The notes beneath the pieces were generated by a model, which saw only the letters and a program-made list of their open reading frames with translations, had not been told where the DNA came from and did no database searches. A program made the position numbers and the translations under genes. Below, piece by piece: positions 22,387 to 41,487 of a stretch of 64,000 nt of DNA (position 1 is its first letter; each line of letters begins with the position of its first letter). The stretch is taken from the sequence record OQ174504.1; one strand, written 5' to 3'. This DNA comes from Escherichia phage REP5.

Positions 22387-22462
22387 TAAAATAACTTGGA
22401 GAATCCGAAGGGACTCGAACCCTTATAAACCTGTTTTGCAGACAGGCACATATCCATTTCTG
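22387..22462 (-). tRNA. tRNA-Cys (GCA)
   Basis: Manual fold: acceptor GAATCCG/CGGATTC, anticodon stem CCTGT/ACAGG, loop CTGCAAA, T-loop TTCGAGT, encoded CCA. Confidence 0.6.
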
Positions 22463-22466
22463 TCAC

Positions 22467-22559
22467 GGATTCAAATTGGAGGAAGATACCAGACTTGAAC
22501 TGGTACACCGATTTCTCAGCTACTGGCAGTTTAGCAAACTGCTCCCTTACCTTTTAGGG
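22467..22559 (-). tRNA. tRNA-Ser (GCU), type II
   Basis: Acceptor GGAAGAT/ATCTTCC, anticodon stem GCAGT/ACTGC, loop TTGCTAA, long variable arm, CCA. Confidence 0.6.
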
Positions 22560-22570
22560 TTAATCTTCCA

Positions 22571-23305
22571 TTATTTCTGTAATGCGCTCTTCATTTCTGG
22601 TGTTGCAATAGTGTCAATTACACCAGTTTTACAAGCATCATCAAACCAGTCTGGTAAGATACCTGCTAAGAACCCATTGATATTCGTTTTAAGGTACTCT
22701 GCAATAAGGGCAGCTTCTTCTTCAATCATCTGCACAACTTCATCTGCATAAGCTGTAATCTTTGAGATACCTTCATTAATCTTGCTAACAGCTTGGTTAG
22801 CTAAATCAGAAACAGTATCAAGACCTTTATCAATAGCATCTTGTAAGTCACTTAATACATCATTAACACCGTCTAGTGCACTGTTCATCATGTCAATAGC
22901 TTTTTGACCATGTTCTGTAGCAACACCCATAATACCACTGAATGGTGTACAACCAACTTGTTCTCCTGCTGCACCCATAACATTGGAATACCCCTTTGCT
23001 ACCTGCATACGTGATGAAAACTCATCAATAGACTTTTGACCGTAGTCTGTTAGGGTCTTAGTAGTTGCTGTAGTGCTTGTAAGGCTTGTTGTAAAGCTGT
23101 TTAGAAGGACTGTTGTAAGTCCAGCAGCAACAAGTTTCTCCTTCATTGTAGGGTCTGTTACAGAACTAATAGAGCTTACAAGTGATGTAGAAGCAGCTAC
23201 GGTTCCACCGAGGACTGCTGCACCAGTAATAAGTGGGTTAGAAAACCCTTTACCGGTTTTTAAGAGATTAAAAATCTCCTTACCTTGTTCTGTCATCTCT
23301 TTCAT
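22571..23305 (-). CDS. hypothetical protein embedded in tRNA cluster
   Basis: ORF 22571..23368 trimmed to an internal Met to avoid overlap with tRNA-Phe. Confidence 0.35.
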   Translation of the reverse strand: MKEMTEQGKEIFNLLKTGKGFSNPLITGAAVLGGTVAASTSLVSSISSVTDPTMKEKLVAAGLTTVLLNSFTTSLTSTTATTKTLTDYGQKSIDEFSSRMQVAKGYSNVMGAAGEQVGCTPFSGIMGVATEHGQKAIDMMNSALDGVNDVLSDLQDAIDKGLDTVSDLANQAVSKINEGISKITAYADEVVQMIEEEAALIAEYLKTNINGFLAGILPDWFDDACKTGVIDTIATPEMKSALQK

Positions 23306-23323
23306 TAAGCACCTTTGAAATTG

Positions 23324-23398
23324 GTAGTCCAGTGGGATTTGAACCCTCTTCTCATGTTTTTCAGACACGCGCTTTAACCATATAAGCTACTTGGACTA
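23324..23398 (-). tRNA. tRNA-Phe (GAA)
   Basis: Acceptor TAGTCCA/TGGACTA, anticodon stem CGTGT/ACATG, loop CTGAAAA, T-loop TTCAAAT. Confidence 0.55.
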
Positions 23399-23403
23399 TA
23401 AAT

Positions 23404-23479
23404 TGGGGTGACCTACGGGATTTGAACCCGTATAGACCATGTTCACAGCATGGGTCATTACCATTTATGATAAGGCCAC
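23404..23479 (-). tRNA. tRNA-His (GUG)
   Basis: D-stem TCAT/ATGA, anticodon stem CCATG/CATGG, loop CTGTGAA, CCA. Confidence 0.6.
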
Positions 23480-23510
23480 ATTTAAGGATTCTCGTAAGAA
23501 CCCTTAGAAG

Positions 23511-23586
23511 TGGCAGCGGCATAAGGATTTGAACCTTAATAGGACAGCTTCAGAGACTGTTGCATTGCCAGTTATGCTATACCGCT
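23511..23586 (-). tRNA. tRNA-Gln (CUG)
   Basis: D-stem GCAT/ATGC, anticodon stem ACAGT/GCTGT, loop CTCTGAA, T-arm TAAGG-TTCAAAT-CCTTA. Confidence 0.55.
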
Positions 23587-23591
23587 AAATT

Positions 23592-23670
23592 TGGTACTCC
23601 ATATCGGATTCGAACCGATACATAACACAGATTTTAAGTCTGGCCTCTCTGCCAATTGGAGTAATGGAGC
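23592..23670 (-). tRNA. tRNA with anticodon UAA (Leu-type) but short variable arm
   Basis: Anticodon helix CAGA/TCTG with loop CTTAAAA; Leu-like D-arm CCAATTGGCAGAG; A73; T-arm ATCGG-TTCGAAT-CCGAT; no long extra arm. Confidence 0.45.
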
Positions 23671-23672
23671 AT

Positions 23673-23748
23673 TGGCGGGGGATGTTGGAATTGAACCAAC
23701 TTCTTCGATTTCAAAGACCGAGGTTTTAACCTTGTAAACTAATCCCCT
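23673..23748 (-). tRNA. tRNA-Gln (UUG)
   Basis: Anticodon stem TCGGT/ATCGA, loop CTTTGAA, T-arm GTTGG-TTCAATT-CCAAC. Confidence 0.5.
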
Positions 23749-23756
23749 TTAAATCT

Positions 23757-24314
23757 TTACTTTCTCAGTGGATGAATAAAGAATGCCAACATAACTCTTT
23801 CCCTTGAGAATGCTCTTTCTTCTGGGACAACGCTTTTTAGTTTCCATCCAATATAAATTCTCCAGTAAAACTGTTTACCAAAGACTTTAATTGATGGGAT
23901 AAAAGCGAATAATCCCCAAGCATTACTGTTCCACATTAGGAGATAACCAGTCTGATTATCTTCAGGGTCAGAACTTACGTTGATATTACCTTTCCACTTA
24001 GTAACATCTTTTACATCTCTTCCTAATACATGGTAAGAGAAGTTATAAGCTTTGTTTCTCCAGAGCCACCCAACTCTCTGCATATAGACACCAAGCTTAC
24101 CAATCTTTCTAATTTTAGCCCATCGTTTAACGTGACCTTCATCACCATCAATTGGGTTGTCATATGTCTCCATCCATCTGAAGCCGAAAGGTAAGTGTCC
24201 TTTCTTCTCACTGTAAAATGGAACTACGAAAGGTGCTAAGATAACTGCTAAGATTGCTGCAAATGGCTCTAACAAAGCTAATAAAATCCATGAAGCATAC
24301 TTCAAATATCTCAT
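23757..24314 (-). CDS. membrane protein embedded in tRNA cluster
   Basis: 185-aa ORF with hydrophobic N-terminus ILLALLEPFAAILAVILAPFVVPF. Confidence 0.4.
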   Translation of the reverse strand: MRYLKYASWILLALLEPFAAILAVILAPFVVPFYSEKKGHLPFGFRWMETYDNPIDGDEGHVKRWAKIRKIGKLGVYMQRVGWLWRNKAYNFSYHVLGRDVKDVTKWKGNINVSSDPEDNQTGYLLMWNSNAWGLFAFIPSIKVFGKQFYWRIYIGWKLKSVVPEERAFSRERVMLAFFIHPLRK

Positions 24315-24333
24315 CTAAATAGCCTCTTTAAAT

Positions 24334-24409
24334 TGGCGCAGGATAAGGGATTCGAACCCCTATTAACAGCTTCGTAGACTGTTGCTCTATCCATTTGAAC
24401 TAATCCTGC
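24334..24409 (-). tRNA. tRNA-Arg (ACG)
   Basis: Acceptor GCAGGAT/ATCCTGC, anticodon stem ACAGT/GCTGT, loop CTACGAA. Confidence 0.6.
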
Positions 24410-24414
24410 AAAAT

Positions 24415-24492
24415 TGGTGTTCCAAGACGGATTCGAACCGTCACTAGTACAAGGTTTGAGCTTGCATCCTCTGCCAATTGGGATACTGGAAC
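24415..24492 (-). tRNA. tRNA with anticodon CAA (Leu-type) but short variable arm
   Basis: Anticodon stem GCAAG/CTTGT, loop CTCAAAC; D-arm CCAATTGGCAGAGG; A73. Confidence 0.45.
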
Positions 24493-24493
24493 A

Positions 24494-24568
24494 TGGTACT
24501 CACTAAAGGACTTGAACCTTTTTCTTCATCTTGTAAGGGTGGTGTTTTACCATATAAACTAAGCGAGT
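24494..24568 (-). tRNA. tRNA-Val (UAC)-like, weak anticodon stem
   Basis: Loop CTTACAA; anticodon stem CCACC/GATGA has two C-A mismatches; acceptor and T-arm intact. Confidence 0.4.
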
Positions 24569-24571
24569 ATG

Positions 24572-24658
24572 AAAGAGGTCTGAAGTTGTGCCGCTAACTC
24601 AACTCCGTGGAATTTGTTACGGTCTTCAGTTGACACCAGCGGTCTTTCACTTGACCTC
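24572..24658 (-). ncRNA. tRNA-like structured element / possible pseudo-tRNA
   Basis: 7-bp terminal helix AGAGGTC/GACCTCT enclosing ~73 nt with internal hairpins but no canonical T-loop. Confidence 0.2.
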
Positions 24659-24663
24659 TGAAT

Positions 24664-24740
24664 TGGTGCTGCTCACAGGACTCGAACCCGCATTTCCATC
24701 CTTACAAGGGATGTGTAATAGCCAATTATACGAAAGCAGC
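24664..24740 (-). tRNA. tRNA-Thr (UGU)
   Basis: Anticodon stem CATCC/GGATG, loop CTTGTAA. Confidence 0.6.
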
Positions 24741-24747
24741 ATTAATT

Positions 24748-24822
24748 TGGAGCATCCAGAGGGAATCGAACCCTCAACCTCAGTTTGGAAGACTGTAATT
24801 TTCCCGTTTAAACTATGGATGC
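24748..24822 (-). tRNA. tRNA-Gly (UCC)
   Basis: Acceptor GCATCCA/TGGATGC, loop CTTCCAA. Confidence 0.6.
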
Positions 24823-24828
24823 ACTAAT

Positions 24829-24904
24829 TGGTGGAGAAGCAGGGAATTGAACCCTGTACTTAAGTTTGCAAAACTTATGTTTTAACCATGTAAACTACAT
24901 CCCC
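24829..24904 (-). tRNA. tRNA-Ala (UGC)
   Basis: Anticodon stem TAAGT/ACTTA, loop TTTGCAA; G3-U70 wobble pair present. Confidence 0.6.
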
Positions 24905-24910
24905 AATGTC

Positions 24911-24986
24911 TGGTACAGGTGGAGGGAATTGAACCCATCGTCTTACTGATTAAGAGTCAGCCGCATAACCATTTTGCTACACCTGC
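24911..24986 (-). tRNA. tRNA-Lys (CUU)
   Basis: Anticodon stem GCTGA/TCAGT, loop CTCTTAA. Confidence 0.5.
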
Positions 24987-24993
24987 ATTAATT

Positions 24994-25071
24994 TGGTAGG
25001 AGACAAGGGATTCGAACCCTCAAACATCTCGTTCTAAGCGAGATAGGTTTACCAATTACCGTCAATCTCCC
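24994..25071 (-). tRNA. tRNA with anticodon UAG (Leu-type) but short variable arm
   Basis: Anticodon stem TCTCG/CGAGA, loop CTTAGAA; D-arm GTAATTGGTAAAC; A73; 5-nt variable region. Confidence 0.45.
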
Positions 25072-25316
25072 ATTAAGTCTTTTTAGAGAACTTCTAAGAA
25101 CCTAAGCAACAAGGTTCCACAACAAGCTGTAATAACCTTAGAAGCCCTCTAAAAAGACCTAAAAAGGTCTTTGCATAGTCTTGTTTAATCCGGTGACTAG
25201 AACCTTTGGAGAGCTTGATATTATCTCTTCTCCGTGACACCTACTAGGTGTTTTATCAATGTGTACAACAATACACGCGGTATACCAAAGCAACATCCGA
25301 ATGAAGCTTGGCTTTA

Positions 25317-25406
25317 AATCTTATTAGGCGGTAAGTAAAGGAGTCGAACCCTCACCGTATCTCTACAGTGGCAACTGTTTTCAAGACAGTTTGGCTACCA
25401 TTAGCC
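25317..25406 (-). tRNA. tRNA-Ser (UGA), type II
   Basis: Anticodon stem ACTGT/ACAGT, loop CTTGAAA, ~20-nt variable arm, T-loop TTCGACT. Confidence 0.55.
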
Positions 25407-25429
25407 GCTACCTACCCCTAATAAGACTT

Positions 25430-25512
25430 TGGCATGGGACGGAGGAGTTGAACCCCTTTGAAACGGTGTTGGAAGCCGTTGCTCATGCCTTAGAGTCTTA
25501 ACATCGTCCCAT
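25430..25512 (-). tRNA. atypical tRNA-like gene (Gly-UCC-like loop with 2-nt expansion)
   Basis: Acceptor ATGGGAC/GTCCCAT with CCA; T-arm AGGGG-TTCAACT-CCTCC; anticodon helix ACGG/CCGT enclosing 9-nt loop CTTCCAACA. Confidence 0.3.
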
Positions 25513-25644
25513 ACTATAATTCGAAGCTTACCGTATTATCTCAACACTGTAAAGCCCCTTCTCAGATTATTTACATGTTCTGGAAAACATGAGATACAGA
25601 CCACCTCCCTACAGGAAGACCCGCTTAGGTCGTCTAAGTAATCT

Positions 25645-25721
25645 GCTAACTATTTGGCACACCCTACAGGATTCGAACCTGTAACTCAATGATTAGAAGT
25701 CATTTGCTCTGTCCAGTTGAA
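25645..25721 (-). tRNA. tRNA-Arg (UCU)
   Basis: Anticodon stem AATGA/TCATT, loop CTTCTAA. Confidence 0.6.
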
Positions 25722-25934
25722 CTAAGGGTGCATTAATCTTTAAAGACTCTCTTAGAAAGCCCTTAAAGATGCCCACCTTATTAATCATACCGTGGGCTAG
25801 TACGCCAAATTCTTTGATGAGGGATTGGAAGACCTCACTGGTGTTTAGCCTATCAAGCTACTGCCAGAAAAACATTGTCGTTTGCATTTATTTTAAATTT
25901 GCAAAATAGACGCTACGCAACGAAAACTAAGGTT

Positions 25935-25963
25935 ACTATAAAGTGGTCACATCTCAGTGTCAA
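25935..25963 (-). promoter_or_regulatory. sigma70-like promoter inside tRNA cluster
   Basis: Minus-strand TTGACA, 17-nt spacer, TATAGT; points leftward into a ~200-nt leader then tRNA-Arg(UCU). Confidence 0.4.
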
Positions 25964-25978
25964 CAACTTTATTGAAAT

Positions 25979-26054
25979 TGGTACTGTGAGAAGGATTCGA
26001 ACCTTCTGCCTTTCGGTTATCAGCCGAATGCACATCCATATGTGCTTTCACAGC
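25979..26054 (-). tRNA. tRNA-Ile (GAU)
   Basis: D-stem GCAC/GTGC, anticodon stem TTCGG/CCGAA, loop CTGATAA. Confidence 0.6.
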
Positions 26055-26056
26055 TT

Positions 26057-26133
26057 TGGAGGTTCAGATGGGAATCGAACCCACATTCATAGGGCTTATG
26101 AGACCCTTGCATTACCTTATCTGCGACTGAACC
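26057..26133 (-). tRNA. tRNA-Met (CAU)
   Basis: Acceptor GGTTCAG/CTGAACC, anticodon stem AGGGT/GCCCT, loop CTCATAA. Confidence 0.55.
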
Positions 26134-26137
26134 ATTT

Positions 26138-26213
26138 TGGTAGAAGTGGAGGGATTCGAACCCATCGCCTGTCAGATTAAAAGTCTGCCGCATCACCATT
26201 CTGCTACACTTCC
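26138..26213 (-). tRNA. tRNA-Lys (UUU)
   Basis: Anticodon helix GCAG/CTGA-type with loop CTTTTAA; T-loop TTCGAAT; CCA. Confidence 0.55.
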
Positions 26214-26217
26214 ATTA

Positions 26218-26361
26218 AATTATCTTTGTAGATAAGCTACCCAGACTTGCTTAAGGTCTGTAGCGATGTGCCTTGTTGGGTTTAAATCTAGAATTTACCC
26301 TTTCACCCTTTGTGGTCGCATACTCACAGGTAAGCTTAATAACTTATCTACAAAGATAATT
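26218..26361. repeat. 19-bp perfect inverted repeat (AATTATCTTTGTAGATAAG) flanking ~106 bp
   Basis: Left arm 26218-26236 is the exact reverse complement of right arm 26343-26361. Confidence 0.6.
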
Positions 26362-26400
26362 ACCAGACCGTTGTTTATCATCTTAAGTGCTACCATTACA

Positions 26401-26440
26401 CCAACTCGACATCTGCCGAGTGAAGGAATCGAACCTTCAC
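26401..26440 (-). pseudogene. tRNA remnant (3' half only)
   Basis: Intact T-arm GAAGG-TTCGATT-CCTTC and acceptor-like 3' strand, but no complementary 5' acceptor found upstream. Confidence 0.25.
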
Positions 26441-26474
26441 CTTTTCTTTACCGGAGAAATAGATTGTTTAAGTT

Positions 26475-26497
26475 TTGCTGTAAACGGTCTTCTGTAA
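26475..26497. repeat. tRNA-cluster repeat element, copy 1
   Basis: TTGCTGTAAACGGTCTTCTGTAAA. Confidence 0.55.
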
Positions 26498-26563
26498 ATT
26501 TGTTGAGCCAGACCAAGTTTTAAATTTTTCAAAATTAAATTGGCTTGAAATTTTCATACGTTC

Positions 26564-26586
26564 TTGCTGTATTTGGTCTTCTGCTC
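26564..26586. repeat. tRNA-cluster repeat element, copy 2 (diverged)
   Basis: TTGCTGTATTTGGTCTTCTGCTC. Confidence 0.45.
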
Positions 26587-26643
26587 CTTTAAAGAATACT
26601 CGTAAGAACTCTTTAAGGGAGGGGCTAAATAGCCCTCTCAAAA

Positions 26644-26729
26644 TTGGCGGCTACGATGAGACTTGAACTCACATCATCTCCCAATATCCTTTTACGTGGG
26701 AGTATTTTAACCAAATTAAACTACATAAC
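26644..26729 (-). tRNA. type II tRNA, anticodon unresolved (possibly degenerate)
   Basis: 86 nt; acceptor GGTTATG/CGTAGCC with CCA; T-arm GTGAG-TTCAAGT-CTCAT; Leu-like D-arm; anticodon region CACGTAAAA with only a 3-bp stem. Confidence 0.35.
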
Positions 26730-26734
26730 CTTTA

Positions 26735-26822
26735 TTGGTGTGCCGTGTAGGAGTCGAACCTACCGAGTCTCAATGACAAGGGATTTACAGTCCCCACCGC
26801 TACCATCTACGGGATAACGACA
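26735..26822 (-). tRNA. tRNA-Tyr (GUA), type II
   Basis: Anticodon stem GGGGA/TCCCT, loop CTGTAAA, long variable arm, T-arm GTAGG-TTCGACT-CCTAC, CCA. Confidence 0.55.
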
Positions 26823-26830
26823 CATTTAAA

Positions 26831-26906
26831 TTTGCGGTTAGTCAGGGATTCGAACCCTGTGCCATTCGCTTAACAGGCGACCGCACATACCTTATGTGCT
26901 TCCTAA
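26831..26906 (-). tRNA. tRNA-Asn (GUU)
   Basis: D-stem GCAC/GTGC, anticodon stem GTCGC/GCGAA (one mismatch), loop CTGTTAA. Confidence 0.55.
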
Positions 26907-26966
26907 CCATATTTAGTATTACCAGACCGTATCTTTCAATTTTTTCCGCTAAAAATTTGATAAGTG

Positions 26967-26990
26967 TTGCTGTAAACGGTCTTCTGTAAA
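26967..26990. repeat. tRNA-cluster repeat element, copy 3
   Basis: TTGCTGTAAACGGTCTTCTGTAAA, directly abutting the 3' end of the tRNA at 26992. Confidence 0.55.
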
Positions 26991-26991
26991 A

Positions 26992-27068
26992 TTGGAGGCG
27001 GGTGCAGGAGTCGAACCTGCCGATACCATGCTAATGAGACATGTGAGACGCCCTTTCTCTATACCCGC
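26992..27068 (-). tRNA. second CAU-anticodon tRNA (Met, fMet or Ile2)
   Basis: D-stem GAGA/TCTC, anticodon stem CATGT/GCATG, loop CTCATTA; 1-72 mismatch. Confidence 0.5.
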
Positions 27069-27133
27069 AATTCTTAATGACCAGACCAAATCTCTTCTTT
27101 GTCCGATTTACCTTCAGATGAATAAGATTAAGT

Positions 27134-27157
27134 TTGCTGTAATTGGTCTTCTGTCAA
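27134..27157. repeat. tRNA-cluster repeat element, copy 4
   Basis: TTGCTGTAATTGGTCTTCTGTCAA, abutting the 3' end of tRNA-Glu. Confidence 0.5.
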
Positions 27158-27160
27158 AAC

Positions 27161-27238
27161 TGGCGTTCCAGAAGGGATTTGAACCCTCAGATATCCACTT
27201 TGAAAGAGTGGTGACTATACCATTTTGTCTACTGGAAC
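27161..27238 (-). tRNA. tRNA-Glu (UUC)
   Basis: Acceptor GTTCCAG/CTGGAAC, anticodon stem CCACT/AGTGG, loop CTTTCAA. Confidence 0.6.
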
Positions 27239-27245
27239 ATTAATT

Positions 27246-27325
27246 TGGTCTCCGTTGAAGGATTTGAACCCTCGACCCCTTGCTCCCAAAGCAAGTGCTG
27301 CTAAACCAAACTGAGCTAAACGGAG
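27246..27325 (-). tRNA. tRNA-Pro (UGG)
   Basis: Anticodon stem CTTGC/GCAAG, loop TTTGGGA, T-arm GAGGG-TTCAAAT-CCTTC, CCA. Confidence 0.55.
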
Positions 27326-27449
27326 ATAAACTTTTCAAACTCTATGTAACCACTTTAACATTATTTTTTAGTGGTTGTCAAGAACTTTTTTAAAATATTT
27401 TTCAGTATCTTAGAAAAGCTCTCATTTCGTTTCTATGTAGAACATATTA

Positions 27450-27490
27450 AAGGGTATTAAACACATTGTCAATACCCTTTTTAAAACTTT
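27450..27490. terminator. terminator-like hairpin downstream of vWA-like gene
   Basis: Hairpin AGGGTATT...AATACCCT; T-run is clear on plus orientation, weaker on minus. Confidence 0.4.
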
Positions 27491-28906
27491 TTACCAGATG
27501 TAACGGTCAATCGTTACTGCTTTGAGCATTACGCTGATTGGGTCAAACTTCTCACCACCAAGCAGAGCTTTTAAAGTGGCTGGAGAGAACCCTGATACCA
27601 TTGCTACACCGTTATCCTTAACAGATACTTCGCAAGTACCATTACGGTTTGCTAAGTACCAGAATACCAGTTGTGGCATCTCATATCCAGCTTTTTTGTA
27701 CTTACTCTGAATTGCTTCAAAGTTTGTACGACCGTTAGCTCCATCAACCTGATTGAACTCCATATCGGAGAAGATGATAAGCTTACTTGGCATATCTTTC
27801 TGAGTCAAGTTGTTTCTCTTACCTGTCTCAAGGATGCGGTCAAAAGCTGCTTGTAAGTTAGTTGAACCATATTCAACATGTCGCATCACCTGACGGTGAC
27901 GGTTCTTTAAATCGCCACTCAGTTCGATGAAATGAGGGTTTGTTGAATAAACCATTAACTCGTTCTTAAAGCAACCTGTATTGCGTTCTGCTACATACAA
28001 GGCAAGTGATACACCAATATCAAGGGCAGTAATTGAGCCAAAATTCACCCAAGACATTGAACTTGAAACATCAGACATACATAGAATGTTTTCACCCTCT
28101 GCCATCCAGTTTGGTAGTGCTTTCCACTGCTCATTAGCAACATCTGCATTACCATACTTAACAGATTTAATCACATCGTATGGATAAACAGCACCAGCGT
28201 TAATCTTAGTCTCACCCTTTGATAAGGACTCGATGTAAGCTTTGTAACGCTCTCCATCTTTACGGTTAAACAGTTTTTGGTAACGTGCAGCAGCAAGTGA
28301 AGGAATCTTACTGTAGTCAATATTACCAAACTCATTAGCAGAGATTTTTTGCTCAACTGTATCAGATAGTGCAGACAATAGTGTGCGGTACTCTTTCTCA
28401 CTCAAGTTGGCAAACTTGCAGAAACGTTTTACAAACTGCTTATGACGTGGTTTGACTCGTGGTAACCACTTAGCTGCTAAACCTGCTGTTGCAGGGTCTA
28501 GTAAAGCTGCTTCTAAATGTTTGAAGGCATCTGTCTCGAAACGAGTACCTACAAAGATTTTGAAGTCATCAAAACGACCAAGTTCTGCAATCTTATCCAT
28601 AATGCGAAGAACCTGCGTAGGCTCTAAAACTTTATCTTCAATCGCTTGAAGTAAAACAGTTCGGAAAGCTTTACGCTCACCCATACCCTCTCGTACATCT
28701 CGCATATGCAGTAAAATACGAACTGCAACATCAACATCCTCATGCAAAGCTTTGTAGAACAAGTCTGGTAAGATTTCTACATTGCTACGGCTAGAACCAG
28801 CAGCTTTGTAAAAGTCCACAAGAGCAGACATTGATGAAGTATGGTTTACAGCACCATTTTCAGTTCGACCTGCATGAAGGTGCGCATGTTTAAATAACTC
28901 GCTCAT
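27491..28906 (-). CDS. vWA-like (DUF2828-type) protein
   Basis: 471-aa ORF; MIDAS-like DxSxS motif in CMSDVSSSM. Confidence 0.5.
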   Translation of the reverse strand: MSELFKHAHLHAGRTENGAVNHTSSMSALVDFYKAAGSSRSNVEILPDLFYKALHEDVDVAVRILLHMRDVREGMGERKAFRTVLLQAIEDKVLEPTQVLRIMDKIAELGRFDDFKIFVGTRFETDAFKHLEAALLDPATAGLAAKWLPRVKPRHKQFVKRFCKFANLSEKEYRTLLSALSDTVEQKISANEFGNIDYSKIPSLAAARYQKLFNRKDGERYKAYIESLSKGETKINAGAVYPYDVIKSVKYGNADVANEQWKALPNWMAEGENILCMSDVSSSMSWVNFGSITALDIGVSLALYVAERNTGCFKNELMVYSTNPHFIELSGDLKNRHRQVMRHVEYGSTNLQAAFDRILETGKRNNLTQKDMPSKLIIFSDMEFNQVDGANGRTNFEAIQSKYKKAGYEMPQLVFWYLANRNGTCEVSVKDNGVAMVSGFSPATLKALLGGEKFDPISVMLKAVTIDRYIW

Positions 28907-28986
28907 ATTTTACTCTCTTCTCTCATTGTTGTTTGATGTGACAGACTTTAGAGCAACTTTGTAGAGTCTGTCAACACCTTTTAAAA

Positions 28987-41214: not shown

Positions 41215-41487
41215 TTACACTAAATGCAGCTTTTTACCTTTTACCATGATGTAACTTGATGCGCTATTGCTGTAAACATCCTGATAAATTCTGCGCAAAC
41301 GTCCTTCGTAGTATACTTTCCAACTAGTTGGAATCTTTTTACCGTATCCGGTAGCAGTTTTTTGGAATCCTGCAAGTTGCCAATCCAAAATATGCTGTTC
41401 AGCTTGTAAATCCTCGAAGTGCATTACACCGTTCACGTAGTGGCGTAGGGTTACGTTTAAGGTGCGACCGTTGTTAGTAGTATGCAT
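41215..41487 (-). CDS. hypothetical small protein
   Basis: 90-aa ORF. Confidence 0.4.
   Translation of the reverse strand: MHTTNNGRTLNVTLRHYVNGVMHFEDLQAEQHILDWQLAGFQKTATGYGKKIPTSWKVYYEGRLRRIYQDVYSNSASSYIMVKGKKLHLV

Follow-up and report, generated by a model that had tools for sequence, protein, structure and literature searches.

Four candidate Y-RNA-like genes in the tRNA island of a Felixounavirus and their proposed link to a divergent Ro60-like protein

Here, we analysed a stretch of 64,000 nt from Escherichia phage REP5 (sequence record OQ174504.1; hereafter the window), in whose tRNA island an initial annotation had recorded a short sequence element recurring four times in the spacers between genes. 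This element is the conserved 5' half of four predicted, paralogous genes for small structured RNAs among the tRNAs of a Felixounavirus, which we designate units A to D. We propose that they represent a functional RNA family tied to a Ro60-like protein encoded directly upstream, and we estimate the probability of this reading at roughly three in four. The four units would accordingly be Y-RNA-like genes of a previously uncatalogued type, and the locus a variant of the Ro60/Y-RNA systems. Ro60/Y-RNA particles are a classic and poorly understood RNA-surveillance system, of which phages have so far been described to carry only TROVE-type proteins with RNAs of the CGAA motif.

The exact 24-mer TTGCTGTAAACGGTCTTCTGTAAA occurs twice in the window (26475-26498 and 26967-26990) and once more with three mismatches (27134-27157); shuffled sequences yielded no match. 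Its core TTGCTGTANNNGGTCTTCTG is present four times (at 26475, 26564, 26967 and 27134), compared to 0.04 expected occurrences, and GGTCTTCTG is found nowhere in the 64 kb outside the four element sites. All copies share one strand and lie within tRNA spacers, which confirms what had been noticed initially, apart from the length: the element as it had been written comprises 24 nt and not 23 nt. The copies are as follows.

26475-26498 (+): element copy 1; 5' part of unit A when read on the minus strand, with outer helix, bulge, 5' helix strand and ACAGCAA
26564-26587 (+): element copy 2, diverged; 5' part of unit B
26967-26990 (+): element copy 3; 5' part of unit C
27134-27157 (+): element copy 4; 5' part of unit D

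At a distance of 40-110 nt from each copy we found a partner sequence, CCAGACCR (26363, 26508, 26922 and 27081), which pairs with the element. This partner had been overlooked, and what had been described as a stand-alone motif is one arm of four RNA genes. An internal TTTACAG direct repeat, also recorded at the outset, is present in two of the four copies and is incidental rather than conserved. A CRISPR-like or anti-CRISPR repeat was considered as well and rejected, since the spacing is irregular (89, 403 and 167 nt) and every repeat pairs with its own partner.

The units have lengths of 71-138 nt, are located on the transcribed minus strand, and the 5' and 3' ends of each of them pair. Minimum free energy folds (RNAfold) gave a common closing stem in four of four cases, composed of an outer helix of 4 bp, an AGA bulge of 3 nt that faces a single G, a second helix of 7-8 bp and an unpaired G. 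The inner helix reads AGACCR/YGGUCU and the loop opens with (U)UACAGCAA; the helix always begins with A-G and ends with C-U, and the start of a single-stranded NCAGCAA is placed exactly 9 nt behind that of the helix. The units and the two tRNA genes that precede units D and C (both called by ARAGORN) are listed below.

27161-27238 (-): tRNA-Glu; encoded CCA end located 4 nt ahead of unit D
27078-27156 (-): unit D, candidate Y-RNA-like gene of 79 nt between tRNA-Glu and tRNA-Met; stem UGAC/GUCA, AGA bulge, AGACCAA/UUGGUCU, unpaired G, loop UU-ACAGCAA plus a variable hairpin
26993-27069 (-): tRNA-Met(CAU); its 3' end lies 3 nt ahead of unit C
26919-26989 (-): unit C, candidate Y-RNA-like gene of 71 nt between tRNA-Met(CAU) and tRNA-Asn; stem UUAC/GUAA, AGA bulge, AGACCGU/ACGGUCU, unpaired G, UU-ACAGCAA
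26505-26586 (-): unit B, candidate Y-RNA-like gene of 82 nt; stem GAGC/GCUC, AGA bulge, AGACCAA/UUGGUCU, unpaired G, AU-ACAGCAA
26360-26497 (-): unit A, candidate YrlA-like tRNA mimic of 138 nt; stem UUAC/GUAA, AGA, AGACCGUU/AACGGUCU, G, then U-ACAGCAA

The paralogues differ from each other in a compensatory manner, both in the outer helix (UUAC/GUAA, GAGC/GCUC, UGAC/GUCA) and in the inner one (AGACCG/CGGUCU versus AGACCAA/UUGGUCU), and the loops vary from unit to unit. The same four unit types recur in Felix-like contigs, where loops drift and stems are kept; one orthologue of unit C carries a compensatory UUGC/GCAA outer helix. In the Felixounavirus Bas63, all four units are present in the same gene order as in the window, with GCAGCAA as heptamer of the unit D copy. 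The Bas63 RNAs do not coincide with annotated tRNAs but fall into spacers, and two of these spacers are annotated as tiny open reading frames (ORFs) on the reverse strand.

Two element copies abut tRNA 3' ends, as had been claimed: the element ends 2 nt past tRNA-Met(CAU) (26993) and 3 nt past tRNA-Glu (27161), and units C and D are separated by 3-4 nt from the CCA upstream of them and by 8-10 nt from the tRNA that follows. A 3'-trailer signal for processing or termination of the preceding tRNA, which had been the first of three functions suggested for the element, or a promoter for the next gene would agree with the start of these copies 2-3 nt after the CCA end and with the similarity of the initial TTTACA to a -35 hexamer. 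However, the element follows only 2 of about 26 tRNAs, the copies of units A and B follow no tRNA at all, and none of the copies is overlapped by a consensus match for a sigma-70 promoter or an intrinsic terminator. Many distant phages have the signature beside the protein gene with no tRNA ahead of it. Moreover, the element requires a distal partner, unlike a trailer signal, and we give this explanation next to no weight.

The protein to which we link the RNA units is encoded by the following gene.

27491-28906 (-): Ro60-like protein gene, 471 aa; directly upstream of the array and on the same strand

The units lie 335-2550 nt downstream of this gene and share its minus strand. The product is annotated as 'RNA-binding protein' in Felix O1 and in Escherichia phage REP6, a Felix O1-related Felixounavirus that is 100% identical with the window at the same coordinates. 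A helical (HEAT-repeat) ring followed by a C-terminal vWA domain, i.e. the full Ro60 fold, is predicted; the AlphaFold2 model has a pLDDT of 89, and its nine best Foldseek hits are Ro60 or TROVE proteins. Matches in Pfam are DUF2828 and DUF7788. In the vWA domain, the MIDAS motif DxSxS (local sequence MSDVSSSMS) has its residues D279, S281 and S283 invariant in 33 homologues. Judged by the model, the protein is a Ro60-fold protein of a divergent sequence family. It is the orthologue of gp130 of Bas63 (97% identity), which the PhageMaP preprint reports to be structurally Ro60-like and to counter the Ppl defence; the authors of that preprint guessed that Y RNAs might be among the 'tRNAs' downstream of the gp130 gene. 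Within the accessible literature, the PhageMaP preprint alone touches this protein in a Felixounavirus.

Evidence for a link between protein and RNA comes from distant loci. We fetched 80 IMG/VR loci with homologues, 75 of which encode proteins with 39-47% identity to the window protein. Counted within 700 nt of the gene in these 75 loci, ACAGCAA has 62 occurrences on the gene strand and 7 on the opposite one, at an expectation of 8.1 (Poisson P ~3e-33), and 37 of them contain the heptamer near the gene. At 66% of the sites, a perfect 7-bp Watson-Crick helix is present whose 5' strand starts exactly 9 nt upstream of the heptamer and whose 3' strand is always followed by G; random positions have such a helix in 4.4% of cases and helix plus G in 0.7% (Fisher P ~1e-57). 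Of the units returned by a relaxed structural pattern in 640 kb, 77 share the strand of the gene and lie no more than 1 kb from it, 17 share its strand at a greater distance and a single one is on the opposite strand; at least one unit is present in 46 of the 75 loci. A test in the reverse direction started from 72 IMG/VR loci with a Felix-type 5' element: 30 also have the partner helix, are all Felix-like, and 25 of them include the gene in the fetched DNA, while none of the 42 loci without partner helix includes it.

The signature reaches well beyond the relatives of Felix O1. The protein is encoded in 709 phage records of GenBank (tblastn), and the host genera of the phages include Escherichia, Salmonella, Mycobacterium, Vibrio, Listeria, Staphylococcus, Campylobacter, Enterococcus and Bacillus. 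Homologues of only 30-47% identity to the window protein are still adjoined by the signature, and those in Mycobacterium phages are annotated as 'Ro-like RNA binding protein'. In Mycobacterium phage LeBron, three units, the middle one tRNA-like, are followed by a terminator. Listeria phage LP-083-2 (L156) has three units beside the gene, and Campylobacter phage PC14 (L157) has two between tRNA-Tyr and the gene. Among 80 bacterial contigs with homologues, derived from genomes or metagenome-assembled genomes, 44 units are on the gene strand and 6 on the opposite one, and the heptamer widens to NCAGCAA. Two further observations concern these phage loci: a gene for an RtcB-like RNA ligase is located 1.3 kb downstream of the Ro60-like gene in LP-083-2, and a tRNA trio Met-Asn-Tyr, as in the Felix-like island, is located directly upstream of the units in PC14.

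We aligned 52 distinct cores with their loops removed. The first pair (A:U or U:A), the second (G:C), the heptamer, the U that precedes it and the 3' G are invariant or nearly so; the other five helix positions vary freely yet stay paired, and at three of them each of the four Watson-Crick pair types is represented. Covariation scored 0.81, compared to 0.09-0.18 with partner columns slid. Since this set had been chosen by pairing, its percentage of paired positions is circular, and the independent support thus lies in the null comparisons of helix register and strand pattern.

This is one of several points that weigh against the proposed RNA family. No unit was found within 1 kb by the pattern used in 29 of the 75 distant loci, nor was the signature found at the locus of Aeromonas phage Aeh1. 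The advantage of the short units over shuffled sequences in folding energy is only modest (z -0.7 to -2.2). No Rfam 15 family, Y-RNA-type or other, credibly matches the units in a scan of the window with E up to 10, and 14 distant loci gave no family at gathering score; apart from noise, the scans returned matches to tRNA and transfer-messenger RNA (tmRNA) only. A covariance model built from loop-trimmed cores, R1, recovers the window units weakly because their loops are long (35-100 nt); it was replaced by direct searches for pattern and helix, run against null controls. In 26350-27165, the transcribed strand lacks GNCGAAN0-1G, the canonical motif of bacterial Y RNAs. On the protein side, there is no match to Pfam TROVE (PF05731), and neither phmmer nor a family-profile search of the sequences in the Protein Data Bank matched a Ro60 chain. 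Finally, both the RNA units and their partnership with the protein are predicted from sequence comparison.

Unit A differs from the other units by its loop, which folds (minimum free energy) into a circularly permuted tRNA-like domain with the order V hairpin, T arm, closed acceptor stem and D arm, such that the 3' half of a tRNA precedes the 5' half. In the order of transcription, its parts are the following.

26443-26459 (-): V hairpin, preceded by a 5-bp helix CUUAA/UUAAG
26422-26438 (-): T arm, GAAGG-UUCGAUU-CCUUC
26404-26421 (-): acceptor stem of 7 bp closed by a 4-nt loop, ACUCGGC-AGAU-GUCGAGU
26387-26402 (-): D arm with the usual A14, G18 and G19 features

ARAGORN called no tRNA in the native order of unit A. 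After rotation at the acceptor loop, it called a tRNA across the full length, with the closing stem as 'intron'. No permuted tmRNA was found by ARAGORN or Rfam. The architecture is shared by the distant loci L096, L129 and L150 and by mycobacteriophage LeBron; MAFFT/RNAalifold on seven tRNA-like units gave no alignment (0 pairs), and individual folds were used for this comparison. Circularly permuted tRNA genes occur in Cyanidioschyzon merolae, and permuted tmRNAs consist of two pieces. As in these, the T arm and the 3' acceptor strand of unit A are encoded before the 5' acceptor strand and the D arm. In contrast, the acceptor of unit A is closed by a 4-nt loop and its open ends are extended into the putative protein-binding stem; it lacks a bulge-helix-bulge splice motif and an anticodon loop, and there is no sign of a functional tRNA product. 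GenBank lists a 'tRNA-Thr GGT' of 131 nt in REP6 (26414-26544 (-)), which fuses the tRNA-like 3' half of unit A with sequence of unit B; this entry is an annotation artefact, a mis-call of the unit A region.

A recombination scar from tRNA gene duplication had been another initial suggestion, and a 3' half followed by a 5' half is what two truncated tandem tRNA copies would leave behind. The units would then be functionless leftovers of duplication or recombination, in line with the odd 131-nt GenBank entry over part of unit A, with at least one degenerate tRNA in the island and with the homing endonuclease genes that interrupt the island of Felix O1. Against this stands that the signature is kept beside the gene, with compensatory changes, in phages of Actinobacteria, Firmicutes, Campylobacterota and Proteobacteria, that the same permuted tRNA-like layout is independently built from different sequences elsewhere, and that the four paralogue types persist across Felix O1-like phages. 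Hence, we consider a scar very improbable.

Why should a phage encode a tRNA mimic at all? One answer is that the RNAs are free-standing decoys of tRNAs or anticodon arms, directed against tRNA-targeting nucleases of the host and independent of the Ro60-like protein, so that the adjacency to the gene reflects nothing but a shared 'RNA island'. The mimicry of tRNA by unit A and its counterparts, the tRNA-rich loci and the RtcB-like ligase at the Listeria phage locus speak for it. However, 71 of the 77 units of the IMG/VR set have no tRNA-like part, the feature common to all units is the stem with the heptamer and not the mimic, and the tight, strand-specific linkage to the gene persists in the absence of neighbouring tRNAs, LeBron being an example. 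The chance that the RNAs act as such decoys thus appears slim.

A different arrangement is found in ten distant loci, in which 1-12 nt separate the end of a unit, sometimes reduced to a minimal hairpin of 32-40 nt, from the downstream Shine-Dalgarno sequence of the protein gene. Among others, minimal hairpins are found at these positions.

L081:3954-3986: minimal hairpin before the Shine-Dalgarno sequence
L086:1764-1795: minimal hairpin before the Shine-Dalgarno sequence
L091:2859-2890: minimal hairpin before the Shine-Dalgarno sequence
L123:3907-3943: minimal hairpin before the Shine-Dalgarno sequence

A unit abutting the Shine-Dalgarno sequence suggests translational autoregulation or RNA processing from the leader as in M. 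smegmatis. This arrangement, together with the location of the window units within a polycistronic tRNA array, favours a view of the units as cis-acting sites on the pre-tRNA or the mRNA leader, at which the Ro60-like protein or another factor would bind to control processing of the tRNA array or translation of the Ro60-like gene. The window units cannot be a leader, however, since they are located downstream of the gene with promoter-like sites in between. Elaborate conserved variable modules, including complete tRNA-like domains, would be needless for an operator, and the flanking tRNAs make excision of units C and D nearly unavoidable, as inferred from the action of RNase P. YrlA and YrlB, too, arise by processing of the rsr leader and are nonetheless stable RNAs. 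We therefore regard purely cis-acting sites as unlikely, while the initial idea of a protein-binding site comes closest of the three that had been proposed: the element provides the conserved 5' strand and the loop start of a stem that co-occurs with a Ro60-fold gene, yet it is only half of the feature. In many distant loci, a short unit is directly followed by a long one of ~170-250 nt with the same closing signature; the long units have a large, conserved-looking interior and are followed by an intrinsic terminator (L083:5467-5720, L097:6125-6294, L113:5754-5936).

The proposed family resembles the bacterial YrlA/YrlB-Rsr system in several respects. In both cases, several small RNAs are encoded within ~2 kb and on the same strand as a Ro60-fold gene, their paired ends form a stem with a conserved motif on or near the 5' strand, and the RNAs are part of the leader of the protein gene at some loci. 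One paralogue carries a domain of V, T, closed acceptor and D parts, and the others are simpler hairpins. The order in YrlA is binding motif, V, T, closed acceptor ('AS') and D (Chen et al. 2014, RNA 20:1715, PMC4201824), and a tRNA-like domain of this type is present in unit A. The search in that study was limited to genomes annotated with a TROVE-domain protein (PMC4201824). In contrast to YrlA and YrlB, the phage motif is an AG...CU helix followed by G and combined with NCAGCAA instead of GNCGAAN0-1G, the protein is of the DUF2828/DUF7788 and not the TROVE type, and the RNAs of Felix-like phages are located inside a tRNA array rather than by an rtcBA/rsr operon and match no Rfam family. The window RNAs, which lack the CGAA motif, also differ from Yrl1 and Yrl2 of Thermus phage phiLo, in which canonical CGAA RNAs accompany a recognisable TROVE protein as Ro60 (NAR 2025, PMC12135203). 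Metazoan Ro60 and Y RNAs share with the phage locus a protein built of a HEAT-repeat ring and a vWA domain and a small RNA whose closing stem is bulged, the binding site in metazoans and the proposed one in phages, and whose loop is variable. They differ in the conserved helix (GGUCCGA/UUGACC type) and in that Y RNAs of metazoans are RNA polymerase III transcripts with La-binding tails and without a tRNA-like domain. Phage T4 likewise has small stable RNAs of unassigned function that are co-transcribed with tRNAs (species 1 and 2, rnaC/rnaD) and released by the tRNA-processing machinery of the host, and we know of no Ro60-like partner gene in T4.

How could such RNAs be released and what could they do? 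We assume that the array is transcribed on the minus strand together with the tRNAs and that the RNAs would be set free by RNase P, which would cut at the 5' end of the tRNA that follows, and by RNase E plus exonuclease trimming after the previous CCA. For unit D, 3' processing of tRNA-Glu would set the 5' end and RNase P cleavage at the 5' end of tRNA-Met would free the 3' end; the units abut tRNA 3' ends probably because tRNA processing releases the RNAs. From their strand-specific co-occurrence with the gene, we infer that the units may bind the Ro60-like protein. The module of conserved stem and heptamer is proposed as docking site, by analogy to Ro60, which relies mainly on the 5' strand when it recognises a bulged stem; the units that end at the Shine-Dalgarno sequence, as a binding site with a second use in autoregulation might, are a hint in the same direction. 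PNPase is a partner in canonical Ro60/Y RNA systems, and the variable modules, the tRNA mimic in particular, could similarly determine specificity or partners of the ribonucleoprotein, which might be part of the counter-defence role of gp130. More tentatively, phage Ro60-like proteins of the DUF2828 type and their RNAs could constitute an undescribed class of ribonucleoprotein with its own recognition code (AG...CU helix, 3' G, NCAGCAA), unlike all known Y RNAs. The RNAs, particularly the tRNA mimic, could then be the working part of an anti-defence device, for example by being needed for the action of gp130 against Ppl or by recruiting or blocking host RNases. We consider this extended proposal possible, though not the probable outcome.

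If the reading of the units as Y-RNA-like genes is correct, a larger and divergent branch of Ro60-fold proteins gains candidate RNA partners with a simple recognition signature, and a seed for a new RNA family model is at hand. Four spacers can be pinpointed where the authors of the Bas63 work could only guess at Y RNAs, long 'empty' spacers in phage tRNA islands find an explanation, and annotations such as spurious small ORFs and the odd 'tRNA-Thr' in GenBank records can be corrected.

The island that harbours the units extends over 22397-27325 on the minus strand and contains 25 tRNA genes by ARAGORN; Rfam adds one tRNA-like gene at 26648-26730. The latter call belongs to a match of 44.3 bits at 26645-26730 (-) without ARAGORN call, which corresponds to tRNA-Asp of Felix O1 and has an 8-nt insertion in the anticodon loop that enlarges it to 13 nt. 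Since the anticodon loop is rewritten in this way, the gene no longer specifies a normal tRNA-Asp. The tRNA-Met(CAU) at 26993-27069 (-) shows the opposite behaviour, with an ARAGORN call and no match to the Rfam tRNA model (15.9 bits to tRNA-Sec only), and is atypical in having U at position 37. Promoter-like sites are present both upstream of the Ro60-like gene and between this gene and tRNA-Pro, and the latter could drive the array of tRNAs and Y-like RNAs.

27352-27472 (-): the sites between gene and tRNA-Pro; two sigma-70-like promoter sequences (consensus matches only)

Between unit A and tRNA-Lys, a multibranched hairpin of 149 nt (26214-26362 (-)) has a closing stem of 24 bp, a folding free energy (dG) of -48.3 kcal/mol and a z of -5.85. 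It has no match in Rfam and is probably a further structured RNA; its counterpart in Bas63 is annotated as two tiny hypothetical ORFs on the reverse strand. A fifth ACAGCAA hairpin, at 41236-41292 (-) (37-nt, with UUACAGCAA in the right register; 22.6 bits and E 0.011 with R1), was rejected as probably a chance match: it is located inside an ORF of 90 aa and does not keep the conserved G:C pair. A 9-bp hairpin UGACAGACU...AGUCUGUCA (28940-28975 (-)) is located directly upstream of the Ro60-like gene and overlaps a promoter of sigma-70-like sequence (TTGACA, 18 nt, TAAAGT). The arms of this hairpin are similar to the outer helix plus bulge of unit D and NCAGCAA is missing; it could represent an operator or a binding site that has degenerated.

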